A stretch of DNA of 14,226 nucleotides from a virus (IMGVR_UViG_2571042870_000001), one strand, 5' to 3'; shown: positions 29 through 14,226, numbered from the stretch's first letter. Translations and numbers: made by a program. Notes: generated by a model from the letters alone, not told the origin.

Positions 29-3000
29 TCAACGAATACTGATGCCGGAAGCGGCTTTTTTGGTCACAATCACCGTACAGTCGGTGATATTGCCTGCCCC
101 CTGATTGCCTTTCTGGAAAATCTTAAACTCCAGAGTGACGCTTCCCCTGCCACTCGGCATATCAATAACTGCACTGTAACTACCGGGAATGGCCCCTTTA
201 GTTTCTCTGGATGCGATTAATACGCCGTTTTTGCGAACTTCAAAACCATAACCCGTGTATCGCGTGCCTCCTGGGTTATTTCCGCTCCCCGGATCGTCAT
301 ACGCTATACCGTTAAAAATAATGGGCGGAATAATAATCTGGCGGTCAAAGTTATGATCATCGCTGATGGTGACTGTAACCGTACCGTTTGGTGTTTCCGT
401 GTTACCCCACGTACCGACTTTTTTCGGGAAGGCTTTTGATACAGCTTTAACGAAATCTCCTCTGACCTGGGTCGCCTCCAGCATGCCCTTAATCGTACAG
501 TTCTGGTTAATCGTGACATTGTTGAGCGTTCCTGAGTTCGCATTCACACTGCCACTGATATCCGCATTTTTCGCCGTCAGCCTCCCGTCTGATGTCAGGG
601 AAAATGCCGGAGGATTACCGCCGCTGGTAATGGTGGGGGCCGTCAGGCGTTTCAGGAACACTTCATTCATGAATATCTGATCGCCCTGACCAACAAACAT
701 CGGCTTTGTGTTGCCATTCGCAGGATTAATCATCGCAATCCTGTCTGCTGCCAGCAGCACCTGACTCTGCATGCCGTCAGGGGTGTTCTCAATACCGGCA
801 CCGATACCCGCAATATAAAGGCGTCCGTCCTGCATCTGCTGCAGCTTCACTGCCCACATGCTGTTCAGGTTATTATTTGTATCAACCTGAACCTTCTGTA
901 TCTGCTGGATCGCTGCACTCTGGTCTTCCAGTTTCTTATTGACGGTCTGTGTTATTTCATTGCTGACATCCGTTATGGACGTCCTGATTTCAGTCAGGTC
1001 AGGCGCAAGCTGACCGTTATCAATCTGCGTCCACAGCTCCTGAGCCAGATGGGTTTTCCCTATCTCGCCTTTGAAAAAATCCAGATAGCCTGATGCATCA
1101 TCACTCGGCTGACCGACAGCCTCCACGAATGCCGATTTGCCAACGGTGTTCACACTGCGAACGTAAAAATAATAATCATGGCCCGGTTTGATATTGATAC
1201 TGGCGGCTATCCAGTACAGTGCCGTACCAAGATAACGCGCGCTGGTTTCAACCTGCCTGATATCCGCAATCCGTTTTTCCGAGAACCAGAACTCAAACTG
1301 TACCGTCGGGTCATAAACCGCAAGATGCGGCGTGGCGGTTATCTGAAAATAGCCCGGCGTCAGCTCAATCCGCGACGGTGCTGCCGGTGCGGCAATCCGG
1401 AATGATACCGACGCCGGATCACCCTGCTGCCCCCAGGCATTTACCGCCCGGACTGTCAGCCTGTAGTTCCCCAGCGCCAGCTGCCTGAAGCGGTATGTGG
1501 TTTCCGTCGTCCGGGCCGTGCTGACCAGCCGCTCACTACCGTCATCCGCTGTTACGGTCAGACGGAGCAGGAAGCTCACGCCCTTCACCACCTTCGGCGT
1601 GTCCCAGCGGGCCAGTACCTGATACTCCCCGCTGTCTGCGGTGACTTCGGCGGTCAGGTGCTGCACCGCTGGCGGAGTGACACCATTCACCGTGCCGCTC
1701 TGGTCCCCGTCAAAGTGCGCCCCGTTATCCACGATGGCTTCTTTTTCCGGTACATGCTGCACGGCGGTGATGGCATACGTGCCGTCATCGTTCTCACGGA
1801 TACTCACACAGCGGAACAGGCGCTGGCGCAACGTTGGCAACTTCAGCCCCCACACGCTGTATTCTGCAACACCGTCAGGAACACGGCTCACTTTTACCTT
1901 CACGCCGTCGGTGACGGACTGGACCTCCACGCTGACCGGATTGCCACTTCCGTCAACCAGGCTTATCAGCGTGGTACCGGAGGATAGCAGCGTGATTTCA
2001 CGGTCGAGCGTCAGCGTCCGGGTCTGGCTGTTCACCGCCAGCACGCGCCCGCCGATGCTGATACCGGCATAGTCATCATCGCAGATTTCAATGACATCGC
2101 CCGGTACATGGCGAAGCCCTTCAGCACCCACGCTGAAGTCCACGGTCTGCGTTTCCAGCAGTTCCGTTTTAATCAGCCACAGCCCGGCGCGGTGTGCCTG
2201 CCCCCGACTGGTACAACCAAAGGCATCCATCTTCGTGACATTACGACCGTAACGGGCAATGGCCTGCGTATCTTCAACAAGCTCTGTCGCCGTCTCCCAG
2301 CCGTTGTTCGGGTCAATCCAGTTCACCTCAACGGCATTATGGCGGTCCTTCAGGGCGCTGAAGCTGTAGCGGAACGGCGCGCCATCATCCGGCATCACCA
2401 CATTACTGCGGTTATAGGTCCACACCTTATCTGATGGTCGGTCCTGCACGAACGTCAGCGTCTGCCCGTTCCATACCGGCATACAGCGCATCGCCGAGCA
2501 GAAATCACTGAGCACATCCCACGCCTTGCGCTGTGTGGTCAGGTACGCATTACAGGTGATGCGCGGCTCCGTGCCGCCAAAGCCGTCCGGCACTGACTGG
2601 TCGCAGTACTGGCCGATGACATACAGCGCCCATTTATCCACATCCGCCGCACCAAGACGTTTCCCCATGCCGTAGCGCGGGTGGGTCAGCATATCCCACA
2701 GACACCAGGCCATGTTGTCGCTGTATGCCGGCTTAAACGTTCCGTCCCAGATACCGCTGTATTGCCGCGTCTGCGGGTTATAGTTCGACGGCACCTGCAG
2801 AATGCGCCCGCGAAGATGATAATTACGGCTCACCTGCTGACTGCCGAACTGCTCCGAGTCCACCTGCACGCCGACCAGTGCCGTGTTCGGGTAGCACTGT
2901 TTCACATCGATGATTTCGGTGTATGACGACCAGAGCGTTTTGTTCTGCAGCTGGTCTGTGGTGCTGTCTGGCGTCATCCTGCGCATCCGGATATTAAACG

Positions 3001-3526
3001 GGCGCGGCGGCAGGTTATCCACCACCACCGAGGCCAGATACTGCGAGGTGGTTTTGCCCTTAATGGTGATGTCTTTTTCCGTCACCCAGCCACCGTTACG
3101 CTGTATCTGAACCAGCAGGCGGACTTCCGATGGATTCCTGTCCCCCTTTGAGGTGGTTTCCACCAGTGCCTGCACACCGAAGGTAAAGCGCAGACGGTCG
3201 ATGTTTGCCGACGTGATGGTGCGGGTGATCGGCGTGTCATATTTCACTTCCGTACCCAGCACAGTCTCGGAGCCGGAGGATTCAAAACCTTCCGGCGGTG
3301 TCTGCTCCTGCTCACCTGCCCGGAACACCACCGTGACGCCGGAGATGTTGGTATTCCCCTCACTGTCCAGCACCGGCGTACTGTTCAGCAGCACGCTTTT
3401 TAATCCATCCACCGGACCTTCAACCGGCCCTTCGCTGATGGCATCAATCACACTCAGTAACTGCGTGGATTTCAGGTTATCTTTCGCTTCGCGCGGGGTA
3501 TGCCCCTTACTGCTGCCTTTACCCAT
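29..3526 (-). CDS. J: Tail tip host-specificity protein J (central tail fibre), 1165 aa
   Basis: Single 1165-aa ORF. N-terminus [21 protein letters not shown] matches lambda gpJ as I recall it. Sits last in the tail gene order after I. Contains fibronectin-III-like segments. Lambda J is 1132 aa by recollection, so this one is 33 aa longer. ATG at 3524-3526 is preceded by GTGAGGA. Confidence 0.93.
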
Positions 3527-3548
3527 TCCTCACGCTCCATAAACGACA

Positions 3549-3568
3549 AAACCGCCCGCAGGCGGTTT
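3549..3568 (-). terminator. Terminator-like hairpin in the I-J intergenic spacer (8-bp stem AAACCGCC/GGCGGTTT, 4-nt loop), followed on the transcript by UUUUGUCGUUU
   Basis: Read directly: plus 3549-3556 aaaccgcc pairs with 3561-3568 ggcggttt, loop 3557-3560. Lies between I stop (3587-3589) and J start (3526). Function not established. Confidence 0.3.
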
Positions 3569-3586
3569 CACATAAAACATTTTGCA

Positions 3587-4258
3587 TCAGCGACCAATCA
3601 CCACAACCTGACCACCGTCCCCTTCGTCTGCCGTGCTGATCTCCTGAGAAACCACCCGTGACCCCACACGCATTTCACCGTACAGAACAGGCAGAACATT
3701 GCCCTGAGCAACCATGTTATCCAGTGAGGAGAAATAGGTGTTCTGTTTGCCGTTATCCGTTGTCTGTGTACGGGGAGTTCTGGCTTTCGGTGCCAGCATC
3801 TGCGCCACACCACCGAGCACCATACTGGCACCGAGAGAAAACAGGATGCCGGTCATACCACCGGCCCCAATGGCTGCCCCCCATGCTGCAAGGGTGGCTC
3901 CGGCAGTAAAGAATGATCCGGCAATGGCGGCAGCTCCCAGGACAATCTGGAATACGCCCCCTGACTTGGCCCCGGCGACTCTGGGAACAATATGAATCAC
4001 AGCGCCGTCAGGCAGAACCTCATGTAACTGCGCCGTCAATCCGGACGTGCTGACGTCCCGCCCGGAAATCCGTACCTGATACCAGCCGTCGCTCAGTTTC
4101 TGACGAAACGCCGGGAGCTGTGTGGCCAGTGCCCGGATGGCTTCAGCCCCCGTTTTCACACGAAGGTCGATGCGGCGGCCAAATCGTTGTAAATCCCCGT
4201 AAAGGCAGATGCGCGCCATGCCCGGTGACGCCAGAGGGAGTGTGTGCGTCGCTGCCAT
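3587..4258 (-). CDS. I: Tail assembly protein I, 223 aa
   Basis: 223-aa ORF, same length as lambda gpI. Position between K and J. C-terminal half is a long Gly/Ala-rich hydrophobic stretch (GGVFQIVLGAAAIAGSFFTAGATLAAWGAAIGAGGMTGILFSLGASMVLGG). Overlaps the K 3' end by 103 nt in another frame. Confidence 0.9.
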   Translation of the reverse strand: MAATHTLPLASPGMARICLYGDLQRFGRRIDLRVKTGAEAIRALATQLPAFRQKLSDGWYQVRISGRDVSTSGLTAQLHEVLPDGAVIHIVPRVAGAKSGGVFQIVLGAAAIAGSFFTAGATLAAWGAAIGAGGMTGILFSLGASMVLGGVAQMLAPKARTPRTQTTDNGKQNTYFSSLDNMVAQGNVLPVLYGEMRVGSRVVSQEISTADEGDGGQVVVIGR

Positions 4259-4899
4259 TTGTCGGTATACCTCTCTCGTTTGCTCAGTTGTTCAGGAATA
4301 TGGTGCAGCAGCTCGCCGTCACCGCAGTAAATAGCGGCATGATTCGGCACCGATGAACCAAAGCAGCACAGCAGCACATCGCCCGGCTGCGCCTCTGTCA
4401 GTGCGACACGGTAAAAACCAGTCGCCTCCATATTGTCAAGATAGAGATTCTGACCGTTACGCCACCAGTCATCCCCGCGATGAAAATCCGGCATCTCAAT
4501 CCCAGCCAGATGATAAGCATCCCGGAACAGCGTGTAACAGTCCGTCGCCCCGTGCTCAAAGCGCCGCCCGGTGAGATGCGGCACACAGCGGAACTTATGA
4601 ATCACTCCCCGGCAGACCAGCCACCACGGCAAATCACTCTGCACCTGCAGCCGCCGGTCGGCCTCACTCAGCCAGGGCAGACCACCGGGGTGACTGTGGA
4701 CCAGCGCCACAATCTCACCCTGCATTTTGGCCTGCAGCCAGTCCTCCGGAGCCATCCGGAAATAATCCTCCGGCTCACCGGAAATATTCACGCAGGGAAA
4801 ATATCTTTCCCCCTCCGGCGTTCTCACCACGAAGCCGCACGACTCCGCTGGCGCACATCGCCGGGCGTGCGCCAGAATCGCTGATTCTGTCTCTGTCAT
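4156..4899 (-). CDS. K: Tail tip assembly protein K, 247 aa with the chosen start; JAMM/MPN-like N-terminal motif and NlpC/P60-like C-terminal motif
   Basis: Start chosen at ATG 4897-4899 (MTETESAILAHARR...), 4 nt after the L stop (TAA 4904-4906). The track ORF begins at 4974 and would overlap L by 70 nt. HSHPGGLPWLSEAD fits the JAMM pattern HxHx7Sx2D. TDCYTLF and PNHAAIY resemble the NlpC/P60 Cys and His motifs. Start codon choice is uncertain. Confidence 0.85.
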   Translation of the reverse strand: MTETESAILAHARRCAPAESCGFVVRTPEGERYFPCVNISGEPEDYFRMAPEDWLQAKMQGEIVALVHSHPGGLPWLSEADRRLQVQSDLPWWLVCRGVIHKFRCVPHLTGRRFEHGATDCYTLFRDAYHLAGIEMPDFHRGDDWWRNGQNLYLDNMEATGFYRVALTEAQPGDVLLCCFGSSVPNHAAIYCGDGELLHHIPEQLSKRERYTDKWQRRTHSLWRHRAWRASAFTGIYNDLAAASTFV

Positions 4900-4903
4900 G
4901 GGA

Positions 4904-5602
4904 TTACTGCGAAAGTTTGTTAATGGAAAGGAAGCCGCCAAAGTTGCCGACGTTATTGCGAAACTTACAGCCACTCAGGCATTTGCTGCATTTATCCTTC
5001 GTGATATCGGATGTCGGCTGGTCATATTCATCCGCGACAGCCGGACCGCTATAACCGCACTCGTCACCGCGATAGGTCCAGGTGCAGGTGTTGGCCAGCA
5101 TGATGCGCCCCGGAAAAACAGCGCCATCCGTTTCCGTCGGCGTGGACAGTACAAAGGAGGCACTCACCGCGCTCAGTTCGCTGCACTGCTCGATGCGCCA
5201 GCGGCTGATCACCTCCTGCTCCGGATCGGCGTCACTGTTTCCGTTGACGAAGTTCACCGCATCCAGAAAACGGGCGTAAACCTTACGCCGGACCACCGTT
5301 CCGCCGACCAGACTCTGCATATCTTCCGCCATCCCGGTGACCATACCGTACAGGTTAGAAACCGTCAGCGTGGGGCGCGTACTGGTGCCTTTGCCATTCA
5401 GTTCAAAACCACTCCCCTGAATGGGATACGGCTGATACTGTCGCCCCTGCCAGGTGACCGGCTCACCTTTTTCGTTCTGCTCATTACAGAAAAAATAACG
5501 TTCTCCACCGACCTCTGTCAGGTCGATTTCCCAGAGCACCACGCTGGCAGACTGCTCCGCACGGGTGCATTCATTCAGTGTTTCCTGTCGGATATCCTGC
5601 AT
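4904..5602 (-). CDS. L: Tail tip protein L, 232 aa
   Basis: 232-aa ORF, same length as lambda gpL. C-terminal four-cysteine cluster (GDEC...DKCSKCLSGC), as in the gpL family reported to bind an Fe-S cluster. Start overlaps the M stop (TGATG). Confidence 0.92.
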   Translation of the reverse strand: MQDIRQETLNECTRAEQSASVVLWEIDLTEVGGERYFFCNEQNEKGEPVTWQGRQYQPYPIQGSGFELNGKGTSTRPTLTVSNLYGMVTGMAEDMQSLVGGTVVRRKVYARFLDAVNFVNGNSDADPEQEVISRWRIEQCSELSAVSASFVLSTPTETDGAVFPGRIMLANTCTWTYRGDECGYSGPAVADEYDQPTSDITKDKCSKCLSGCKFRNNVGNFGGFLSINKLSQ

Positions 5603-5931
5603 CAGTTCACCACCTGTTCAAACTCTGCGCTGAACTCAACACGCAGCATACTGACCCGCGACGACCATTTTGCGCAGGTCACCTTTATCTGCCGGTAGCC
5701 ATAAGGCGGCGTCCACAGAAAGGCCTTCCAGCCCCCGTGCTCAGCCAGAAACGACTCCAGCGCCGCGGCCTCCCAACGGGGAACAGAAAGCGTCACGCTG
5801 TACGTTTTCAGGTCAGTGTTCAGCCCGGCAGGCGCTCGCTGGGAATAGCCATCACCAAAGCGCACCTTTCTTACGGAAGGGGCCGAAGCCACATCCATAC
5901 CGGGTTTCACTTTCCAGCGGAAGGTTTTCAT
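5602..5931 (-). CDS. M: Tail tip protein M, 109 aa
   Basis: 109-aa ORF, same length and position as lambda gpM. Its ATG overlaps the H stop (ATGA). Confidence 0.92.
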   Translation of the reverse strand: MKTFRWKVKPGMDVASAPSVRKVRFGDGYSQRAPAGLNTDLKTYSVTLSVPRWEAAALESFLAEHGGWKAFLWTPPYGYRQIKVTCAKWSSRVSMLRVEFSAEFEQVVN

Positions 5932-8489
5932 CGTCCACCTCCGGAGAACAGACCACCATCGCGCATCTGTGCCTGAATTTCATCACGGGCACCCTTGCGG
6001 GCCATGTCATACACTGCCTTCATCATCTGTGGACCTGGCAGACCATTCGTACCGTCGTTCTGAATCACCACGTTGTTGTTCTGCTCAAACCTGATACCCT
6101 CTGAACGCCGCATTTGCGCCGGACTTCCGGTGCCACCGACATAACCGCCGGTGGCATAGCCGCGCATCAGCCGGTAGAGATTTCCCACGCCAATCCGGCT
6201 GGTTGCCTCCTTCGTGAAGACAAATTCACCACGGTGAACAATCCCCGCTGGCTCATATTTGCCGCCGGTTCCCGTAAATCCTCCGGTTGCAAAATGGAAT
6301 TTCGCCGCAGCGGCCTGAATGGCTGTACCGCCTGATGCGGATGCGCCGCCACCAACAGCCCCGCCAATGGCGCTGCCGATACTCCCGACAATCCCCACCA
6401 TTGCCTGCTTAAGCAGAATTTCTGTCATCATGGACAGCACGGAACGGGTGAAGCTGCGCCAGTTCTGCTCACTGCCGGTCAGCATCGCCGCCATATTCTG
6501 CGCAATACCATCAAAGGTCTGCGTGGCTGCACTTTTAACCTGCGACATACTGTTCGTGGCGCTCTCTTCCCACTCACTCCAGCCGGACTTCAGGCCTGCC
6601 ATCCAGCTCCCGCGAAGCTGGTCTTCAGCCGCCCAGGTCTTTTTCTGCTCTGACATGACGTTATTCAGCGCCAGCGGATTATCGCCATACTGTTCCTTCA
6701 GACGCTGTTCCGTGGCTTCCCGCGCTGCCTGCCGGTCAGTCAGCCCCCGGTTTTTCGCATCAATGGCGGCACGTTTTGCCCGTTGCTGCTGTGCGAATTT
6801 ATCCGCCTGCTGCGCCAGCGCGTTCAGGCGCTCCTGATACGTAACCTTGTCGCCAAGTGCAGCCAGCTGGCGTTTGTACTCCAGCGTCTCATCTTTATGC
6901 GCCAGCAGGGATTTCTCCTGTGCGGACAGCTGGCGACGTTGTGCCGCCTCCTCCAGTACCGCGAACTGACTTTCTGCCTTCCACAAATCCCGGCGCTGCT
7001 GGCTGATTTTCTCATTCGCTCCGGCATGCTTCTCCAGCGTCCGGAGTTCTGCCTGAAGCGTCAGCAGGGCAGCATGAGCACTGTCTTCCTGACGATCGCC
7101 CGCAGACACCTTCACGCCGGACTGTTTCGGCTTTTTCAGCGTCGCTTCATAATCCTTTTTCGCCGCCGCCATCAGCGTGTTGTAATCCGCCTGCAGGATT
7201 TTCCCGTCTTTCAGTGCCTTGTTCAGTTCTTCCTGACGGGCGGTATATTTCTCCAGCGGCGTCTGCAGCCGTTCGTAAGCCTTCTGCGCCTCTTCGGTAT
7301 ATTTCAGCCGTGACGCTTCGGTATCGCTCTGCTGCTGCGCATTTTTGTCCTGTTGAGTCTGCTGCTCAGCCTTCTTTCGGGCGGCTTCAAGCGCAAGACG
7401 GGCCTTTTCACGATCATCCCAGTAACGCGCCCGCGCTTCATCGTTAACAAAATAATCATCCTTGCGCAGATTCCAGATGTCGTCTGCTTTCTTAAACGCA
7501 GCCTCTGCCTTAATCAGCATCTCCTGCGCGGTATCAGGACGACCAATATCCAGCACCGCATCCCACATGGATTTGAATGCCCGCGCTGTCCTGTCTGCCC
7601 AGGTCTCCAGCGTGCCCATGTTCTCTTTCAGGCGGCGGGTCTGGTCATCAAACCCTTTCGTTGCGGCCTCGTTCGCCGCCTGCAATGCCCCGGCTTCATC
7701 GCCGGAACGCTGCAACTGAGCAACATACGCAATCTGCTCCGCCGTCACGTTATGGAACTGGCGTGCCATCGCAGTCAGCCCCGACGTCGGGTCTGTGGTC
7801 AGCTTCCCGAAGGCTTCAGCGACCTTGTCCACCTCCACGCCGGATGCAGAGGAGAAACGCGCCACACTCTGGCTGATGGACGCAATCTGAGCCTCACCGC
7901 TTACCCCCGCCTTAACCAGTGCGCTGAGTGACTCGCTGGTCTGGTTAAACGTCAGCCCTGCCGCCTGCCCGGCTCTGGACAGGACCAGCATACGATCTGC
8001 CGTCAGTCCCGCCTGATTGCCGGAAAGGACCAGCGTTTTGTTGAAATCGGACAGGGTTGAGTTGCCCTGATACCAGGCATACGCCAGCGCACCGGTCGCC
8101 ACCGCCAGCGAGGTGGCCCCCACCATCGGCAGGGTGATCGCACCGGCAAGCCCCCTGAACATGGGGATCATCCCGCCGAAGGAGTCCTTAACCTGACCAC
8201 CCTGTTGCAGCAGGATCAGCCACGGACTTTGCCCGCCTGCAAGCTGCGTGGCCACGTCGGTGAACTGTGCAGGCAGCATACGCATGGCGGCTTTATACTG
8301 CCCGACGGAAATCCCCGCTTTCTGTGCAGCCAGCGCCTGTCGGCTCAGCGACTGTTCAACGACTGCCGCTGTTTTTTTCGCATCACTTTCCGTACCGGAA
8401 AAATGACGCCTGACTCTGGCCATCTGCTCGTCAAATCTGGCCGCATCCAGACTCAAATCAACGACCAGATCGCCTACCGGTTCAGCCAT
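5928..8489 (-). CDS. H: Tail tape measure protein H, 853 aa
   Basis: 853-aa ORF, same length as lambda gpH. Ala/Gln/Glu/Lys/Arg-rich central region with coiled-coil character and a Gly-rich C-terminal region. GGAGGAG Shine-Dalgarno upstream of ATG 8487-8489. Start overlaps the end of the T frame. Confidence 0.93.
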   Translation of the reverse strand: MAEPVGDLVVDLSLDAARFDEQMARVRRHFSGTESDAKKTAAVVEQSLSRQALAAQKAGISVGQYKAAMRMLPAQFTDVATQLAGGQSPWLILLQQGGQVKDSFGGMIPMFRGLAGAITLPMVGATSLAVATGALAYAWYQGNSTLSDFNKTLVLSGNQAGLTADRMLVLSRAGQAAGLTFNQTSESLSALVKAGVSGEAQIASISQSVARFSSASGVEVDKVAEAFGKLTTDPTSGLTAMARQFHNVTAEQIAYVAQLQRSGDEAGALQAANEAATKGFDDQTRRLKENMGTLETWADRTARAFKSMWDAVLDIGRPDTAQEMLIKAEAAFKKADDIWNLRKDDYFVNDEARARYWDDREKARLALEAARKKAEQQTQQDKNAQQQSDTEASRLKYTEEAQKAYERLQTPLEKYTARQEELNKALKDGKILQADYNTLMAAAKKDYEATLKKPKQSGVKVSAGDRQEDSAHAALLTLQAELRTLEKHAGANEKISQQRRDLWKAESQFAVLEEAAQRRQLSAQEKSLLAHKDETLEYKRQLAALGDKVTYQERLNALAQQADKFAQQQRAKRAAIDAKNRGLTDRQAAREATEQRLKEQYGDNPLALNNVMSEQKKTWAAEDQLRGSWMAGLKSGWSEWEESATNSMSQVKSAATQTFDGIAQNMAAMLTGSEQNWRSFTRSVLSMMTEILLKQAMVGIVGSIGSAIGGAVGGGASASGGTAIQAAAAKFHFATGGFTGTGGKYEPAGIVHRGEFVFTKEATSRIGVGNLYRLMRGYATGGYVGGTGSPAQMRRSEGIRFEQNNNVVIQNDGTNGLPGPQMMKAVYDMARKGARDEIQAQMRDGGLFSGGGR

Positions 8490-9320
8490 ACCGGACTCCT
8501 CCTGCGATCCCTTCTGATACTGTCATCAGCATTACGTCATCCTCCGTCATGTCCGCCACATCCGGGGAAGCGGGGATAACTTCATTCCCGTCCGGGCCAA
8601 AGCGGACACCTCCGGCAAGCCCTGCCGCTTTCTGCATCAGCACATCATCTTCAGGCTCTTCGTCAGCCTCGCGCCGGTTCAGCAGACTGAAATCCAGCGG
8701 ATGCATATCCGGATCGCTGAAAAACAGGCTGAGCACGGTGTACGTCAGCCCGGAAAAGTGCATATCCAGCAGAACATCATGAAAATAATGGGTACTGTAA
8801 AAGCGGTGCCAGTCGGCATACTCCGTGGATGACATCCCGGCAAGCATGGCGCGCCAGTCGGGTCGCCCCATCTCACGCGCCAGTTTCAGGGCAAAACTCA
8901 GCTCACCGTCGAACACTTTCCCGCAGAAACAGGCTCTGCAGGCCCGGCGTCATCTGCCTGTTCAGGTGCATCATTCACAACAAACTCAGACATACCGGAC
9001 AGACGCATTACCACATTTTCAGCCTGAGCAATTGCCTCTGTGGGCCAGGTGGTAAGCACTTCCTGCTCAATTTGTTTAACGGCTTCATTCATGGACGGCA
9101 GCTTTGTCTTCTGCGGATGGCTATGCCACAGGGACATCGCCACCAGAAAAGCACCGGTTCTGACGAGATCTTCCACGCTCACCTGTCGATTGAGACTGGA
9201 TCCCGCCTGTTCTGCCTGTCGTTTCAGCAGGGCGAGATGCTCAATTCGCTGCAGGGCTGACAGTTCAGAAAGCGTGACGCTCACACCGTTATATTCAAAT
9301 GATTCGGTTTTCAGGAACAT
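8482..9320 (-). CDS. G-T: G-T tail assembly chaperone fusion made by programmed -1 ribosomal frameshift (G frame 9320 to 8916, then T frame to 8482)
   Basis: The T frame (8482-8916) has no ATG of its own; the track's start is GTG 8914-8916 directly after the slippery heptamer. It is in the -1 frame relative to G and opens at the GGGAAAG site, 6 codons before the G stop. Same arrangement as lambda G/G-T. Confidence 0.82.
8898..9320 (-). CDS. G: Tail assembly chaperone G, 140 aa
   Basis: 140-aa ORF, same length as lambda gpG. Ends ...SAGKCSTVS with the slippery site in codons AGK. GGAGAG Shine-Dalgarno 6 nt upstream of the ATG. Confidence 0.9.
   Translation of the reverse strand: MFLKTESFEYNGVSVTLSELSALQRIEHLALLKRQAEQAGSSLNRQVSVEDLVRTGAFLVAMSLWHSHPQKTKLPSMNEAVKQIEQEVLTTWPTEAIAQAENVVMRLSGMSEFVVNDAPEQADDAGPAEPVSAGKCSTVS
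8916..8922 (-). promoter_or_regulatory. Slippery heptanucleotide G GGA AAG for the G/G-T -1 programmed frameshift
   Basis: Plus strand 8916-8922 is ctttccc, reverse complement GGGAAAG. In the G frame it reads GCG GGA AAG (A-G-K), 6 codons before the G stop TGA at 8898-8900. Confidence 0.85.
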
Positions 9321-9335
9321 CGCTGACTCTCCGGA

Positions 9336-10076
9336 TTAACTGTCGGTGACGGTGATTTCTGCAACCACAGCAAGTTCACCATTACCGGATACAACCGGAA
9401 TGTTGACCTTGCCTGCAGCAACACCTTTCACGGTGATGGTCATACCACTGACCGACACGGTGGCTTTTGTTTTATCCGCTGACACCGCACGGAAGCTCTT
9501 GTCGGTTGCGCCTTCCGGCTGGAATGCCACGGTCAGCGTGGTGCTCTGCCCTTTCACCACCGAAGTGCTGGCAGGCGTCACGGTCATGCCGGTTGCCGCT
9601 GTTACCGTGCTGCGATCTTCTGCCATCGACGGACGTCCCACGTTGGTGACTTTCACCGTGCGGGTGATCACTTCCTTCGCCGTCACCGCCTTACCGATAC
9701 TGCTGACCCAGCCGCGGAACACATCGACCGTGCCGTTCGGGAAGCGGATTTTATAGGCACGGGTATCCCCTTCATTAAACCACGCCAGCAGCGCCTGCTG
9801 CCCCTGCTCTCCGGGCATCCACGCCAGCGTGAAGCTGGTATCTCCGGCAGATTTCTGCCCCTGCCCGGTCGCAGTCCAGTCCGCATCTTCATCATCGAGA
9901 TAGCTGTCGTCATAGGACTCAGCGGTCAGTTCGCCGGGCGTCAGGTCTTTAACTTTAGCCAGACGCGACCAGTCAACGTCTGAAAGCGGGTTCGCATAAG
10001 GGTCACCGTTCCCCTTATAAACCCACAGTGTGGTCCCGGCACCTTTCACCGGCATTGTAGGATTTGGTACAGGCAT
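9336..10076 (-). CDS. V: Major tail tube protein V, 246 aa, with C-terminal Ig-like domain
   Basis: Start chosen at ATG 10074-10076 ([22 protein letters not shown]...), giving 246 aa as in lambda gpV. GAGGA Shine-Dalgarno 4 nt upstream. The track's longer ORF from 10106 would overlap U. C-terminal ~90 aa are Thr/Val/Ser-rich, consistent with an Ig-like domain. Confidence 0.9.
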
Positions 10077-10083
10077 AGCGTCC

Positions 10084-10479
10084 TCACATTTCATAGGTAA
10101 TGACATAAGTCAGATCGGCTGAACTCCACAGGCCCGCATCATCGTCGCGCCGGTAGTCATAGCCGCTGGCCACCATACTGGTGATCAAATCTGACAGTGC
10201 CGGGATATCACTCATCACCGGATAAATCCGGGACTCCATCCACGCATCCAGCTCTGAATCCGGCACCTGAGCAGGCAGGAAAACTTCGATATGCAGCTCC
10301 GCCTGCCAGGTATCGCTGTCCAGCTCTTCGCCCGTGTATTCAGCGCCGGTGAGATAAACGGCAACTGCCGGAAAATCCGCCTCATCAAAAACAGCGGGGC
10401 GACCATCAAAAAACGTCGCCCCGGTGTCATGCTTCTCCAGTGCATCCAGTACGGCTGCACGGAGTTCAGTATGTTTCAT
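10084..10479 (-). CDS. U: Tail terminator protein U, 131 aa
   Basis: 131-aa ORF, same length and position as lambda gpU. ATG overlaps the Z stop (ATGA). Confidence 0.92.
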
Positions 10480-11054
10480 CGCTTTATTACCATCCTCAGT
10501 TGATGCTGCAGCGCATAGCCCAGCTCTTTCGGAAGACGTTCACGCCGTATCCGCTCAATATTTTGTTTAAACGCCGTGGTCAGCGGCACCGCCATCGGGA
10601 TTTTCACCACATCAATGGGGTAACGGTTTTTCCCGGCCACACGCTGCATGACATGCCACCGGCCATTTTTCAGTTGCTGAATAAACGCGCCGGGAATACG
10701 ACGGTTACCCACCACAAGCACGCTGCCGCCACCTTTCAGGGCTGAACGCTGCCCCTTTTTACGACGCCTGCGTCGGGACAGGACAATCCGCGCGTTACCC
10801 AGCTTTATTACGGGCAAATCCCCCCGGTTAACCTTGATTCTGGCCTGCGGATTTTTTACCGTAGCCCTTTTCAGCCTGGCCCTTTCCTTTACCAGTTTCC
10901 GGCGTACCTTTGTCTCACGGGCAACCTGTGACGCCGACTGCGATATCGCGGATGAAGCAACGCGGTTAATGGCCATTGCGGCAGCACCGGGCACCGCCGT
11001 TCTGCTGATACGGCTGAGGTTTTCAACGGCCTGCTCAAGACCTTTTATGGCCAT
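10476..11054 (-). CDS. Z: Tail completion protein Z, 192 aa
   Basis: 192-aa ORF, same length and position as lambda gpZ. Contains a basic patch RRRRRKKGQR. Confidence 0.9.
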   Translation of the reverse strand: MAIKGLEQAVENLSRISRTAVPGAAAMAINRVASSAISQSASQVARETKVRRKLVKERARLKRATVKNPQARIKVNRGDLPVIKLGNARIVLSRRRRRKKGQRSALKGGGSVLVVGNRRIPGAFIQQLKNGRWHVMQRVAGKNRYPIDVVKIPMAVPLTTAFKQNIERIRRERLPKELGYALQHQLRMVIKR

Positions 11055-11065
11055 ACATCCCCCTT

Positions 11066-11419
11066 TCAGCGGCGACGGTTAACGGCAGGCGGTACGCCCC
11101 GCCCAAGCCAGAGATGACAGCTTCCGCCATCATCCGGCGAAATCCGGTCTATCCAGAAGTTTTCCTCACCGATGGTCAGCGTGTCGCCGCGCCGCAGCTG
11201 CCGCACATCATCAGTCCGGACAAACAGGGACGGGCTGGAGCCTTCAACGCGCACGCCCGGTCCGGCATAGCTGATATTTTCAGGGTCATCAAAAACACCA
11301 CGTATCACAGCACCGGACTGCTCACCGGATGTCATGGTGGCTGACGTTCCCATGTACCCGCGTATCGTTTCATCGGCGCGGGCAATGGCAGCATCGAACA
11401 GATTATCGAAATCAGCCAC
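11066..11419 (-). CDS. FII: Head-tail joining protein FII, 117 aa
   Basis: 117-aa ORF, same length and position as lambda gpFII, between FI and Z. Confidence 0.92.
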   Translation of the reverse strand: MADFDNLFDAAIARADETIRGYMGTSATMTSGEQSGAVIRGVFDDPENISYAGPGVRVEGSSPSLFVRTDDVRQLRRGDTLTIGEENFWIDRISPDDGGSCHLWLGRGVPPAVNRRR

Positions 11420-11430
11420 AGCGCCTCCCG

Positions 11431-11826
11431 TTATTGCATTCTGGCCAGGCCGCGCTCTGTCATTTCAACTGCCACACCGGCAGAGACACGGAACGCCGTT
11501 CCCGGCAGCACAAATGCCACAGCCTCATCCCGCGTGGCGTGAAGTGCATCAGTATGCAGCGTCACCAGTGCCACAACCGTGACCAGATCAGCCGTATCAG
11601 TCACGGTATCCGGCTGCGCTGATACCAACTCATTTTCATGCCCGGTCAGCGCATTTTCCGGGCTGACAGATGTGTCCTGACCGGCAGCGTCATCCGTGTC
11701 ATTAAGCTCCTCTTCCAGCTCTGCCACACGGAGTGCCAGTTCTTCTTTCGTCCCCGTCAGGCTGACATCACGGTTCAGTTGCTCACCCAGCACCTGAAGA
11801 CGGGCAATCAGTTCATCTTTCGTCAT
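11431..11826 (-). CDS. FI: DNA packaging / head assembly protein FI, 132 aa
   Basis: Start chosen at ATG 11824-11826 (MTKDELIARLQVLGEQ...), preceded by GGAGGAG. Gives 132 aa as in lambda gpFI. The track's longer ORF starts at an ATG inside the E-FI hairpin. Confidence 0.85.
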   Translation of the reverse strand: MTKDELIARLQVLGEQLNRDVSLTGTKEELALRVAELEEELNDTDDAAGQDTSVSPENALTGHENELVSAQPDTVTDTADLVTVVALVTLHTDALHATRDEAVAFVLPGTAFRVSAGVAVEMTERGLARMQ

Positions 11827-11847
11827 GGACTCCTCCACAGAGAGAAA

Positions 11848-11865
11848 ATGGCCCCGAAGGGCCAT
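11848..11865 (-). terminator. Perfect 7-bp hairpin with UUCG tetraloop (AUGGCCC-UUCG-GGGCCAU) just downstream of E, followed by AUUUUCUCUCU
   Basis: Read directly: plus 11848-11865 atggccccgaagggccat is a perfect palindrome around a 4-nt loop. On the minus-strand transcript the loop is UUCG. Lies between E stop (11868-11870) and FI start (11826). Confidence 0.35.
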
Positions 11866-11867
11866 GA

Positions 11868-12893
11868 TTACGCCAGTTGTACGGACACGAACGCATCAGG
11901 GTCAGCCAGCAGCATCAGCGGTGCTGACTGAATCATGGTGAACTCACGCGCCGGATCGCCGGTGGTCACCCAGTTTTTCGGGTAGCGGGCAGAGGCGTTA
12001 ATACCTTCGCGCTGTGCGTCCGCATCCTGAATGCAGCCATAGGTGCGCAGACCGCGTGCCTGAGTGTTCCCCAGCACCATCGTGTTGTCCGGCAGGAAGT
12101 TCTTTTTGACGTCGTTTTCCACGTACTGTCCGGAATACACGACGATCGCCGTATCGCCATACATCCCCTTATAGGACACCGCTTCGCCCAGGTCTTTTAC
12201 CGCAGTCTCCAGCTCGGAATTAGAGCCGCGACGGGTATCCAGCTTCTCCTTGACGGCTTTGAAGGAACGGAACAGCGCCCAGCCTTTCGGATCGAACACG
12301 ATGATATTCACCACACCGCTGGCGTTCAGCGCGTAGGCTTCGATATCGTCGGTCGGGTCATACGTGGACTTGTCACGCTTGCTCCACTCCGTACCGCCGG
12401 ACTGCGTGATGTTGTTCGCCGCACTGCGGCCCATATCCACCTCAACCGGATCGAAGGCTTCACCGGTCATGGTGTATTTGCCCTTGAGCACGGCAGAAAC
12501 TGCCTGCATCTCTTCGACCTGGGCAATGGCCAGCTCTTCGTCACGCATGTTCTGCATGATGATGCGACGGCGACGGTAAGCCGGATCCGCCAGATTCTGT
12601 GGATCTTCATCCGGCAGGCGACGCAGGGTCATCTGCGGATTCACCTCATGCTTGGGTTTGACATATCCCGGCGTAAATTCAGAGGTGGAGCCGCCACGGG
12701 AACGGATAACCTCACCGGAAACAATCGGCGAAACGTACAGCGCCATGTTTACCAGTCCCGGAATTTGTGAGAGATAGACTTTCTCCGTGGTGAAGGGATA
12801 GCTCTCACGGAAAAAGAGACGCAGAAACAGCGGATCAAACTTAAATTTCTGCTCATTTGCCGCCAGCAGCTGGGCGGTTGTGTACATCGACAT
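11868..12893 (-). CDS. E: Major capsid protein E, 341 aa
   Basis: Start chosen at ATG 12891-12893 (MSMYTTAQLLAANEQKFKFDP...), giving 341 aa as in lambda gpE. The track ORF from 12920 would run into the D-E spacer hairpin. Confidence 0.93.
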   Translation of the reverse strand: MSMYTTAQLLAANEQKFKFDPLFLRLFFRESYPFTTEKVYLSQIPGLVNMALYVSPIVSGEVIRSRGGSTSEFTPGYVKPKHEVNPQMTLRRLPDEDPQNLADPAYRRRRIIMQNMRDEELAIAQVEEMQAVSAVLKGKYTMTGEAFDPVEVDMGRSAANNITQSGGTEWSKRDKSTYDPTDDIEAYALNASGVVNIIVFDPKGWALFRSFKAVKEKLDTRRGSNSELETAVKDLGEAVSYKGMYGDTAIVVYSGQYVENDVKKNFLPDNTMVLGNTQARGLRTYGCIQDADAQREGINASARYPKNWVTTGDPAREFTMIQSAPLMLLADPDAFVSVQLA

Positions 12894-12930
12894 AAAAAAA
12901 TCCCGTAAAAAAAGCCGCACAGGCGGCCTT
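12894..12930 (-). terminator. Terminator-like element in the D-E spacer: GC stem (GCCGC-CUGU-GCGGC) followed by UUUUUUU ACGGGA UUUUUUU directly before the E start
   Basis: Read directly: plus 12914-12918 gccgc and 12923-12927 gcggc form the stem. Plus 12894-12913 is aaaaaaatcccgtaaaaaaa, giving two U7 tracts on the transcript. Confidence 0.35.
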
Positions 12931-12948
12931 TAGTGATGAAGGGTAAGG

Positions 12949-13281
12949 TTAAACGATGCTGATTGCCGTTCCGGCAAACGCGGTCCGTTTTTTCGTCTCG
13001 TCGCTGGCAGCCTCCGGCCAGAGCACATCCTCATAACGGAACGTGCCGGACTTGTAGAACGTCAGCGTGGTGCTGGTCTGGTCAGCAGCAACTGCAAGAA
13101 TGCCAACGGCAGCACCGTCGGTGGTGCCATCCCACGCAACCAGCTTACGGGTGGCGGTGTCCAGCATCAGCGGGGTCATTGCAGGCGCTTTCGCACTCAA
13201 TCCGCCGGGCGCGGTTGCGGTATGAGCCGGGTCACTGTTGCCCAGCGGCTGGTAATGGGTAAAGGTTTCTTTGCTCGTCAT
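12949..13281 (-). CDS. D: Capsid decoration protein D, 110 aa
   Basis: Start chosen at ATG 13279-13281 ([12 protein letters not shown]...), giving 110 aa as in lambda gpD. Near-identical to lambda gpD as I recall it. The track ORF starts 2 codons upstream (MFM...). Confidence 0.92.
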
Positions 13282-13290
13282 AAACATCCC

Positions 13291-13896
13291 TTACACTGGT
13301 GTGTTCAGCAAATCGTTAACGGCATCAGATGCCGGGTTACCTGCAGCCAGCGGTGCCGGTGCCCCCTGCATCAGACGATCCAGCGCAGTGTCACTGCGCG
13401 CCTGTGCACTCTGTGGTGCTGCGGCCAGAATTCGGCGGGCCGTTTCCACGGTCATACCGGGAGTTTCTGCCAGCACGCGAGCCTGTTCTTCGCGTCCGTG
13501 AGCCTCCTCACAGTTGAGGATCCCCATAATGCGGCTGTTTTCTGCCGCAACCGCTGCGGTGATCTGCGCGTTCACGTCCGGCTGCGCCGCGCTGGCGTTT
13601 TCACCCTCCGTCGCTGGCACCACGTCAGTAACGTCAGCCTGCAAAGCAGTGGCTGAAACAGTTGTTGATTGAGTCTCTTTGGTCATTCGCCCTCCTGAGA
13701 GACGGGATTTACGTGCATCCAGCGCATCACGCATGACGGTGATCGCATCGGTGCTGTTAACAAGTTCATCAGCCAGTCCGGCATTAATGGCCTCCTGACC
13801 GCTGTACACTGCAGCCTCGGTATCCAGCACAGCCTGCACGGACAGGCCGGTATATGCCGACACCTTCTGTGCAAACATCCGGCGGGTTGCATCCAT
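13291..13896 (-). CDS. Nu3: Scaffolding protein Nu3, in-frame internal start within the C reading frame, 201 aa
   Basis: ATG at 13894-13896 (MDATRRMFAQKVSAY...) gives a 606-nt ORF sharing frame and stop with C, the same length as lambda Nu3 by recollection. No obvious Shine-Dalgarno seen; start chosen by analogy. Confidence 0.7.
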   Translation of the reverse strand: MDATRRMFAQKVSAYTGLSVQAVLDTEAAVYSGQEAINAGLADELVNSTDAITVMRDALDARKSRLSGGRMTKETQSTTVSATALQADVTDVVPATEGENASAAQPDVNAQITAAVAAENSRIMGILNCEEAHGREEQARVLAETPGMTVETARRILAAAPQSAQARSDTALDRLMQGAPAPLAAGNPASDAVNDLLNTPV

Positions 13897-14226
13897 CCGG
13901 GACTGCAGTGTTTCCCGGACGTCATCCGGTAGATGGCTGTAGGGGTTCAGGAAATCAATATGCCGGTTATCCAGCTCAGGAAAACGTCGCTGCACCGACA
14001 GAGGAATACCGTCGAGAATACTGGATATTTCCCTTGCTATACGCGACAGCACGAAAGTACAGAATGCGGTTTCCACCACTTCAGCCGATTCTTTGGCATT
14101 TTTCAGTTCCTGCGCCGTCGCCTGAGCACGAGTCAGGCGATGGCGCTCAAATTCAAGTGTTCCGGGGTGAAGATCTGCCTCGCTGGCCAGCCGCAGTTCT
14201 TCAACCTCCCGGCGCAGCTTTTCGTT
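13291..14226 (-). CDS. C: Capsid assembly protease C, C-terminal ~311 codons; 5' end lies beyond the window
   Basis: The minus-strand frame of the 13291-14079 ORF stays open to position 14226 (NEKLRREVEELRLASEADLHPGTLEFERHRL...). The track's ATG at 14079 is therefore internal. Position upstream of D and the nested Nu3 match lambda C. Confidence 0.85.
   Translation of the reverse strand, partial: NEKLRREVEELRLASEADLHPGTLEFERHRLTRAQATAQELKNAKESAEVVETAFCTFVLSRIAREISSILDGIPLSVQRRFPELDNRHIDFLNPYSHLPDDVRETLQSRMDATRRMFAQKVSAYTGLSVQAVLDTEAAVYSGQEAINAGLADELVNSTDAITVMRDALDARKSRLSGGRMTKETQSTTVSATALQADVTDVVPATEGENASAAQPDVNAQITAAVAAENSRIMGILNCEEAHGREEQARVLAETPGMTVETARRILAAAPQSAQARSDTALDRLMQGAPAPLAAGNPASDAVNDLLNTPV

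Follow-up and report, generated by a model that had tools for sequence, protein, structure and literature searches.

A lambda-type tail-tip protein J with a long shaft and a phage 434-type receptor-binding domain

The DNA analysed here (the window) is a stretch of 14,226 nucleotides from a virus (IMGVR_UViG_2571042870_000001), at one end of which lies gene J, which encodes the tip attachment protein, or central tail fibre. [quoted passage not shown] We consider it very probable that this J is modular in origin, with a long shaft and a 434-type RBD brought in by recombination and with OmpC as the receptor. The combination of alleles is already known and very common; what we describe is ordinary modular tail-fibre swapping, and it confirms rather than extends current knowledge. 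An earlier note on the same DNA had drawn attention to the base composition and length of J. Its observation is partly confirmed and its interpretation partly supported, and base composition is not the evidence for the swap.

Mosaic layout and base composition of J

The minus strand of the window is a lambda-type late operon, in which positions 1030–13947 match lambda 5081–18002 with 96.4% identity over 12.9 kb. J closes the tail operon, after H-M-L-K-I in the order of the window's open reading frames (ORFs), and the tail operon, J included, is intact throughout. Past the stop codon of J, 28 nt of the window remain; in the relatives L010, L013 and L014, lom and the side tail fibre gene stf come next. 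J is a single intact ORF of 1165 aa, compared with 1132 aa for lambda J, as the earlier note had stated. It contains six Pfam families in lambda-type order, each over its curated cut-off (E 4e-25 to 7.6e-43): FNIII-A_GpJ (residues 86–207), Phage-tail_3 (330–496, the hub), Ig_J (610–714), Ig_J_second (716–818), Phage_Tail_Tip (872–1000) and Ig_GpJ_C (1029–1164), with a Pfam-free gap at residues 819–871 between FNIII-2 and the tail-tip fibre. [quoted passage not shown] Given a hub that is 98% identical to that of lambda J, the protein is probably trimeric and built into the tail tip.

Table 1. Features of gene J in the window
Feature	Residues or codons	Window position	Strand	Basis or remark
Gene J (tip attachment protein / central tail fibre), 1165 aa		29..3526	minus	Stop codon 29–31; ORF list and translation
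Hub and FNIII module, lambda-type	1–805	1111..3526	minus	~98% aa identity to lambda J, 98–99% to 434
Conserved low-GC stretch, FNIII-2	726–805	1111..1351	minus	Change-point at ~1351 common to lambda J
Shaft module, long allele (alpha-helical shaft and upper beta-prism)	806–942	700..1110	minus	Segment identities
28 residues missing from lambda and 434	about 837–864	935..1018	minus	Protein alignments; gap placement alignment-dependent
Linker (lower central straight fibre)	943–1003	517..699	minus	Conserved among alleles; putative crossover zone
RBD, 434 type	1004–1165	32..516	minus	Predicted OmpC binder; segment identities, Pfam Ig_GpJ_C E=4e-25

The borders of the mosaic come from an alignment of eight J proteins to that of the window. 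Over six successive segments, identity to the window's J was 98/98/85/33/89/37% for lambda, 99/98/85/34/89/97% for 434, 98/97/90/99/94/96% for cdtI, 98/98/100/99/91/42% for PhiR47_2 and 76/74/100/100/96/99% for Stx2a_WGPS6. Lambda gpJ (NP_040600; structures 8iyk, 8xck and, with LamB, 8xcj) thus has the same gene position and domain order and 98% identity over residues 1–800, shares the conserved linker and has the same RBD and fibre fold. It differs in the shaft (33% identity over residues 821–935), where it lacks 28 residues, and in its LamB-binding RBD, which is 37% identical. The J of phage 434 (UMO75286.1), like that of lambda h434, resembles the window's in the hub and FNIII part and in the RBD, and differs in having a short shaft with 34% identity and 28 residues fewer over 821–935. 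Of the 33 residues by which the window's J exceeds lambda J, 28 lie in the helical shaft, and the RBD contributes a net 5.

At the nucleotide level, identity to lambda is 93–98% down to window ~1141 and about 85% over 1140–1081, and no lambda nucleotide match was found 3' of window 473. Nucleotide breakpoints lie at window ~1110, ~700 and ~516. The alignment that the earlier note had proposed for locating the identity breakpoint against lambda places it in the window at ~1110 (residue ~806). Where that note had envisaged a single swapped module of ~300 aa, there are two (residues 806–942 and 1004–1165), kept apart by a conserved linker of 61 aa. The linker is 89% identical in amino acids to both lambda (over 936–1005) and 434 and 87–90% identical to lambda in nucleotides; per 60-nt bin, nucleotide identity is 82–100% to seven of the eight alleles and 75–83% to PhiR47_2. 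In Stx2a_WGPS6, another hub/FNIII allele (74–76% aa identity) is joined to a distal part that is ~100% identical, and the change from one to the other falls somewhere from window ~1320 to ~1140.

As the earlier note had remarked, the 3' end of J is poorer in GC than the rest. The best single change-point in J takes GC from 0.594 to 0.496 at window ~1351 (codon 725; LLR 16.0, a value reached in 0 of 2000 codon shuffles) and coincides with the FNIII-1/FNIII-2 junction in Pfam. Positions 1–1000 are the lowest-GC kilobase of the 14.2-kb window (0.490 versus a mean of 0.572, sd 0.021). The hand counts in the note fared less well: its 35–50% across 1–960 compares with a measured 0.37–0.58 per 60-nt line (mean 0.49), and its 55–70% further upstream suits the line at 1381–1440 (0.67) but not that at 961–1020 (0.52). 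Its shift at ~950–1000 (residues 850–860) corresponds neither to the change-point nor to the homology break, and the change-point itself lies 81 codons upstream of that break.

Lambda J has its own GC change-point, likewise at codon 725 (0.593 to 0.532), and codons 726–805 have a GC of 0.50 in all eight of the J alleles compared, lambda included, with DNA that is 93–98% identical to lambda. Every J allele, that of lambda included, has a GC-poor 3' third, as a lasting trait of the region that encodes the fibre. Because the step at codon 725 is present in lambda J, inside conserved sequence, it is not the footprint of a swap. Such a shared drop had been named in the earlier note as a result that would tell against a swapped 3' end, and the step is indeed common to both genes; the RBD-coding part in the window, however, is lower still. 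This extra depression is limited to the last ~160 codons (0.48, compared with 0.547 in lambda). By RBD type, GC is 0.48 for 434, 0.477 for A8-like alleles and 0.547 for lambda, and GC3 is 0.51 compared with 0.62 in lambda. For genome scanning, the step is generic to J and hence useless for calling a swap; borders (residues ~806, ~943 and ~1004) are obtained only from alignment.

Receptor-binding domain and candidate receptor

Residues 1006–1165 are 97% identical to the J of phage 434 over 160 aa, from which they differ by five substitutions (N1047D, R1127G, I1136V, Q1138H and G1143R), and 95–99% identical to PhiR11_1, cdtI and Stx2a_WGPS6. The suspicion in the earlier note of a swapped C-terminal receptor part, with a different receptor implied, is borne out, and the near-identity of the last 300 aa to lambda J that would have spoken against it was not found. 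Close similarity to the LamB-type RBD (lambda J ~976–1132) was likewise not found, the alignment giving 37% identity with 17 gapped columns, and the A8 type is matched at only 50% (77/154); the allele nearest to A8 is PhiR47_2 (82%). Among 243 phage-collection records with a homologous domain, RBD identity to the window is at least 90% in 74, below 60% in 169 and between 60 and 90% in none. By these sequence identities the 434-type RBD is a discrete class.

The domain has an Ig-like beta-sandwich fold (PF12421, E=4e-25) and was modelled as all-beta with a pLDDT of 72–90. The best Foldseek matches of the RBD-region model are 9wca, 8xck and 9wcb, with a TM score of 0.67 on the 9wcb RBD. The A8 gpJ chimera (9wca, closed; 9wcb, open with OmpC; Nature 2024 base-editing vectors) is the best-scoring solved match in sequence and fold. 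It carries a natural alternative J C-terminus that redirects lambda particles to OmpC; its RBD belongs to a different class from that of the window, and the solved construct has the short shaft of lambda. For both receptors there is a solved homologue in complex with the porin: 9wcb shows A8 gpJ bound to OmpC, and 8xcj shows lambda gpJ bound to LamB.

Phage 434 uses OmpC as its receptor, and placing 434 J on lambda confers OmpC binding while LamB is dropped (review, PMC3509688). A sequenced lambda h434 imm21 hybrid (PMC9119081) has a match pattern equal to that of 434. Natural gpJ C-termini (A8 and 1A2) fused to lambda J also redirect particles to OmpC (PMC11338833). RBD classes that are ~40–50% identical may share a receptor (434 and A8, OmpC) or differ in it (lambda, LamB), so that only the near-identity to 434 carries weight. 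Since the RBD is 97% identical to that of 434 and 434 uses OmpC, OmpC is the predicted receptor of the window's allele, and the prediction is well supported. A virion with this J would be expected to adsorb irreversibly to OmpC and not to LamB, as 434 and lambda h434 do. The five RBD substitutions could give it a spectrum of OmpC variants different from that of 434. For annotation, this J is best assigned to the OmpC-type (h434) host-specificity proteins and not to the LamB binders.

In the literature we found no receptor assay for the identical-RBD phages mEp332 and phiSTEC1575-Stx2k or for cdtI, and no usable paper on PDB entries 9wca and 9wcb; a 2026 receptor-screen preprint includes no lambdoid J alleles. 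The DNA encoding the RBD also contains an antisense ORF (366–680, plus strand, 104 aa), which is not a gene: it is not conserved among alleles, has an early stop in cdtI and has lost its stop codon in PhiR11_1, and substitutions show no preference for its frame.

Module exchange and genomic context

All four combinations of shaft and RBD were found: short with lambda (lambda), short with 434 (434 and PhiR11_1), long with 434 (the window, Kati, cdtI and WGPS6) and long with A8-like (PhiR47_2). The shaft and the RBD therefore assort independently. Contigs that encode a tape-measure protein H identical to that of the window (853/853 aa) carry two types of J. In L010, L013 and L014, which are intact prophages, J is identical at 1165 of 1165 residues. 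In L015, there are 8 differences in residues 1–1003 and 97 of 165 alignment columns differ in the RBD, which is of a fourth class (identity 66% with A8, 45% with lambda). Near-identical prophage backbones thus differ only in the RBD. Nucleotide divergence from L015 begins to climb within the linker and jumps at window ~496, and mismatches to 434 end at window 572. This is the pattern expected for homologous recombination and suggests that the RBD is exchanged via the conserved linker. Both features, the conserved linker and the separateness of the RBD classes, are already put to use in engineered gpJ chimeras (PMC11338833).

Taken together, the 3' ~1.1 kb of J encodes the distal portion of a lambda-type central tail fibre and is put together from interchangeable alleles. 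Their exchange would proceed through homologous recombination in the conserved flanks (the end of FNIII-2 and the linker) between co-resident lambdoid phages and prophages. Receptor binding by the RBD would then be relayed up the fibre so that the tail tip opens, as in the structures of lambda and A8 gpJ; the transmission mechanism has been described for lambda gpJ (PMC11101478).

The long shaft with a 434-type RBD is widespread. Among 5426 complete E. coli genomes, 1164 (about 21%) contain window 29–1110 at a coverage of 80% or more, and 518 of the complete-genome records match it with at least 99% identity; its annotation there is gpJ. Deposited phages with the combination are Kati, ev243, PhiR34_1, PhiR68_2, mEp332, phiSTEC1575-Stx2k and cdtI, and their J, as well as that of L010, L013 and L014, is essentially that of the window. 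Across the whole gene, J DNA of the deposited phages is 95–97.6% identical to that of the window; over the last 1250 nt at the 3' end, Kati and PhiR68_2 reach 99.9%. The head-gene region is intact in these relatives, whereas the window has a deletion between Nu1 and C.

The model implied by the earlier note, in which the whole ~1 kb 3' end came in recently as one foreign piece, from a donor of lower GC, and the GC step marks its edge, would explain why the 3' third is significantly GC-poorer and why 434 and A8-like RBD alleles fall near 0.48, below lambda. We regard it as highly improbable, because the step precedes the homology break and sits at the same codon in lambda J, the intervening codons 726–805 are equally GC-poor in all alleles and close to lambda in sequence, a near-lambda linker separates the two divergent segments, and shaft and RBD assort independently. 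Exchange of separate modules remains our reading of J, and a different objection concerns the receptor. Single substitutions can change the receptor use of lambda J. Five differences from 434 might give a 434-like RBD a different receptor or confine it to a narrow subset of OmpC variants: a few substitutions move lambda J between porins (PMC11101478, discussion), and the OmpC variants accepted differ between the A8 and 1A2 chimeras (PMC11338833). We nevertheless think this unlikely, given the 97% identity to 434 over 160 aa, the recurrence of the same substitutions in a tight class of 74 records with no intermediates to other classes, and the recorded propagation on K-12 MG1655 of mEp332 and PhiR34_1, which have the window's RBD type, 434 likewise being propagated on K-12.

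The deletion itself amounts to 4,435 bp relative to PhiR42_1 and to every contig that encodes an identical H. At window 13946/13947, where there are 2–3 bp of microhomology, the reading frame of Nu1 continues into internal codons of C (...RHIDFL joined to NPYSHLPDDV...). W and portal B are lost completely, as are the greater part of terminase A and the 5' portion of C. Scans for the exact Nu1-C junction found it in none of the 5426 complete E. coli genomes, nor in the species-representative genome set or IMG/VR. Since intact prophages have an identical J, the deletion must either be recent or be an artefact of assembly or sampling. If it is real, the element cannot package DNA alone, and J would serve mainly as a recombination donor; in the genome of the window, J may never enter an infectious particle. 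J would then be a passenger in a defective prophage that sets no host range directly and only donates modules to incoming lambdoid phages, a possibility that we take seriously while leaning somewhat against it. The loss does strike terminase A, W, portal B and C, and one study describes relaxed homologous recombination with defective prophages as a way for temperate phages to gain DNA (PMC3945230). Yet J and the tail operon are intact and J matches its counterpart in intact prophages at every residue, so that any decay would be very recent, and the junction occurs in no other genome searched, so that it may be an artefact of assembly or sampling. In either case the passenger role complements the modular account given above and does not compete with it over the identity of the modules.

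Shaft length polymorphism

The long shaft allele (99–100% aa identity) occurs in Kati, cdtI, Stx2a_WGPS6 and PhiR47_2, and the short allele in lambda, 434 and PhiR11_1; DNA for the 28 extra residues was found in 65 phage records. Divergent J homologues (53–74% identical in the segment, one of them from Salmonella) have the long form in every lineage, and in their alignment only lambda and one lambda-type fragment lack the 28 residues, in a homologue set that was seeded with a long query and is therefore biased in what it recovers. Protein homologue searches gave fragments only (at most ~400 aa), and the allele combinations above were taken from phage and E. coli nucleotide collections. The extra length, which the earlier note had counted as an excess over lambda J, is better stated the other way round: the long shaft appears to be the common state, and lambda and 434 J probably carry a 28-residue deletion.

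Structure prediction, which the earlier note had proposed for the last ~300 aa, covered residues 801–1165. The AlphaFold2 monomer had an overall pLDDT of 59.8 from a 44-sequence alignment. Confidence is low in the beta-prism, as one would expect where three chains intertwine; from the model we therefore took only the helix and the all-beta RBD, and the shaft geometry is tentative. In the model, residues 837–889 form a single continuous helix (pLDDT ~64–77) that holds the 28 residues. These residues fall within the Pfam-free gap, which corresponds to the alpha-helical shaft. Their number equals four heptads, which would lengthen one shaft helix by roughly 4 nm if fully helical. All solved lambda-type fibres, the A8 construct included, have the short shaft, and no solved structure has a lambda-type long one.

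In lambda J, the helix at residues 841–861 refolds to beta-strands upon receptor binding. Shaft length could accordingly be a functional, independently exchanged module rather than neutral variation, a suggestion that we make with little confidence. If it holds, a long shaft, which approximately doubles the lambda 841–861 helix, could tune either the reach of the fibre through O-antigen or capsule or the threshold at which DNA ejection is set off. Internal duplication of neighbouring heptads was rejected as the source of the 28 residues (local alignment score of 17, compared with a mean of 21.6 for shuffled sequences). The tail-tip protein of phage T1 (9l9p_S) matches the shaft region at near-equal length (109 versus 110 residues), with a weak E of 6e-4.

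Deletion of head genes

The window lacks 4,435 bp that are present in intact relatives (14151-18585 of the reference, PhiR42_1 locus L009). The missing segment covers W and the portal gene B in full, together with most of the terminase gene A and the 5' portion of C, and its loss leaves an in-frame fusion of Nu1 to the interior of C/Nu3 (...RHIDFL/NPYSHLPDDV...), with microhomology of 2-3 bp at the junction. Searches of 5426 complete Escherichia coli genomes, genome_contigs and viral_contigs returned no match to the Nu1-C junction, and the head-gene region is intact in all contigs that encode a tape-measure protein (H) identical to that of the window.

Variation in the tail-tip protein J

Two of the prophages with identical H carry a J with a fourth class of receptor-binding domain (RBD), which shares 66% identity with the A8 domain, 65% with that of PhiR47_2 and 45% with that of lambda. 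In another such contig, L012, gene I is followed by a gap, then by unrelated SocA_Panacea, DinI and DUF4760 genes and a chromosomal RF3-like gene; this prophage appears to be truncated at or within J.

Along the Stx2a_WGPS6 J gene, nucleotide identity to the window rises from 60-78% to 88-93% at ~1320 (amino acid ~736) and is ~100% from ~1140 on. Window positions 1141-1320, inside the FNIII-2 domain, thereby mark a further recombination joint. The joint lies near codon 725, the GC change-point shared by the window and lambda.

An antisense open reading frame in the RBD-coding DNA was rejected as spurious: it is unconserved, with a premature stop in cdtI and no stop codon in PhiR11_1.

Divergence from lambda outside J

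The deepest local drop in identity to lambda outside J falls at the 3' end of H (5957-6151; 79%, with 10 gapped columns), against ~96% for the remainder of the operon. Smaller dips are tabulated.

Coordinates of features in the window and in contigs with identical H
Feature	Position	Strand	Details
Antisense ORF	window 366-680	+	104 aa; within RBD-coding region
Dip versus lambda	window 4358-4557		K/I overlap; 87%
Dip versus lambda	window 8952-9350		3' end of V, plus G; 88-89%
Dip versus lambda	window 11551-11747		FI; 90%, 3-nt indel
Deletion junction	window 13946-13947 (context 13291-14226)	minus	from comparison with intact relatives
J, fourth RBD class	L015:14964-18443; L011:14964-18443		1159 aa
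Region after gene I	L012:14331-17600		J gene not called
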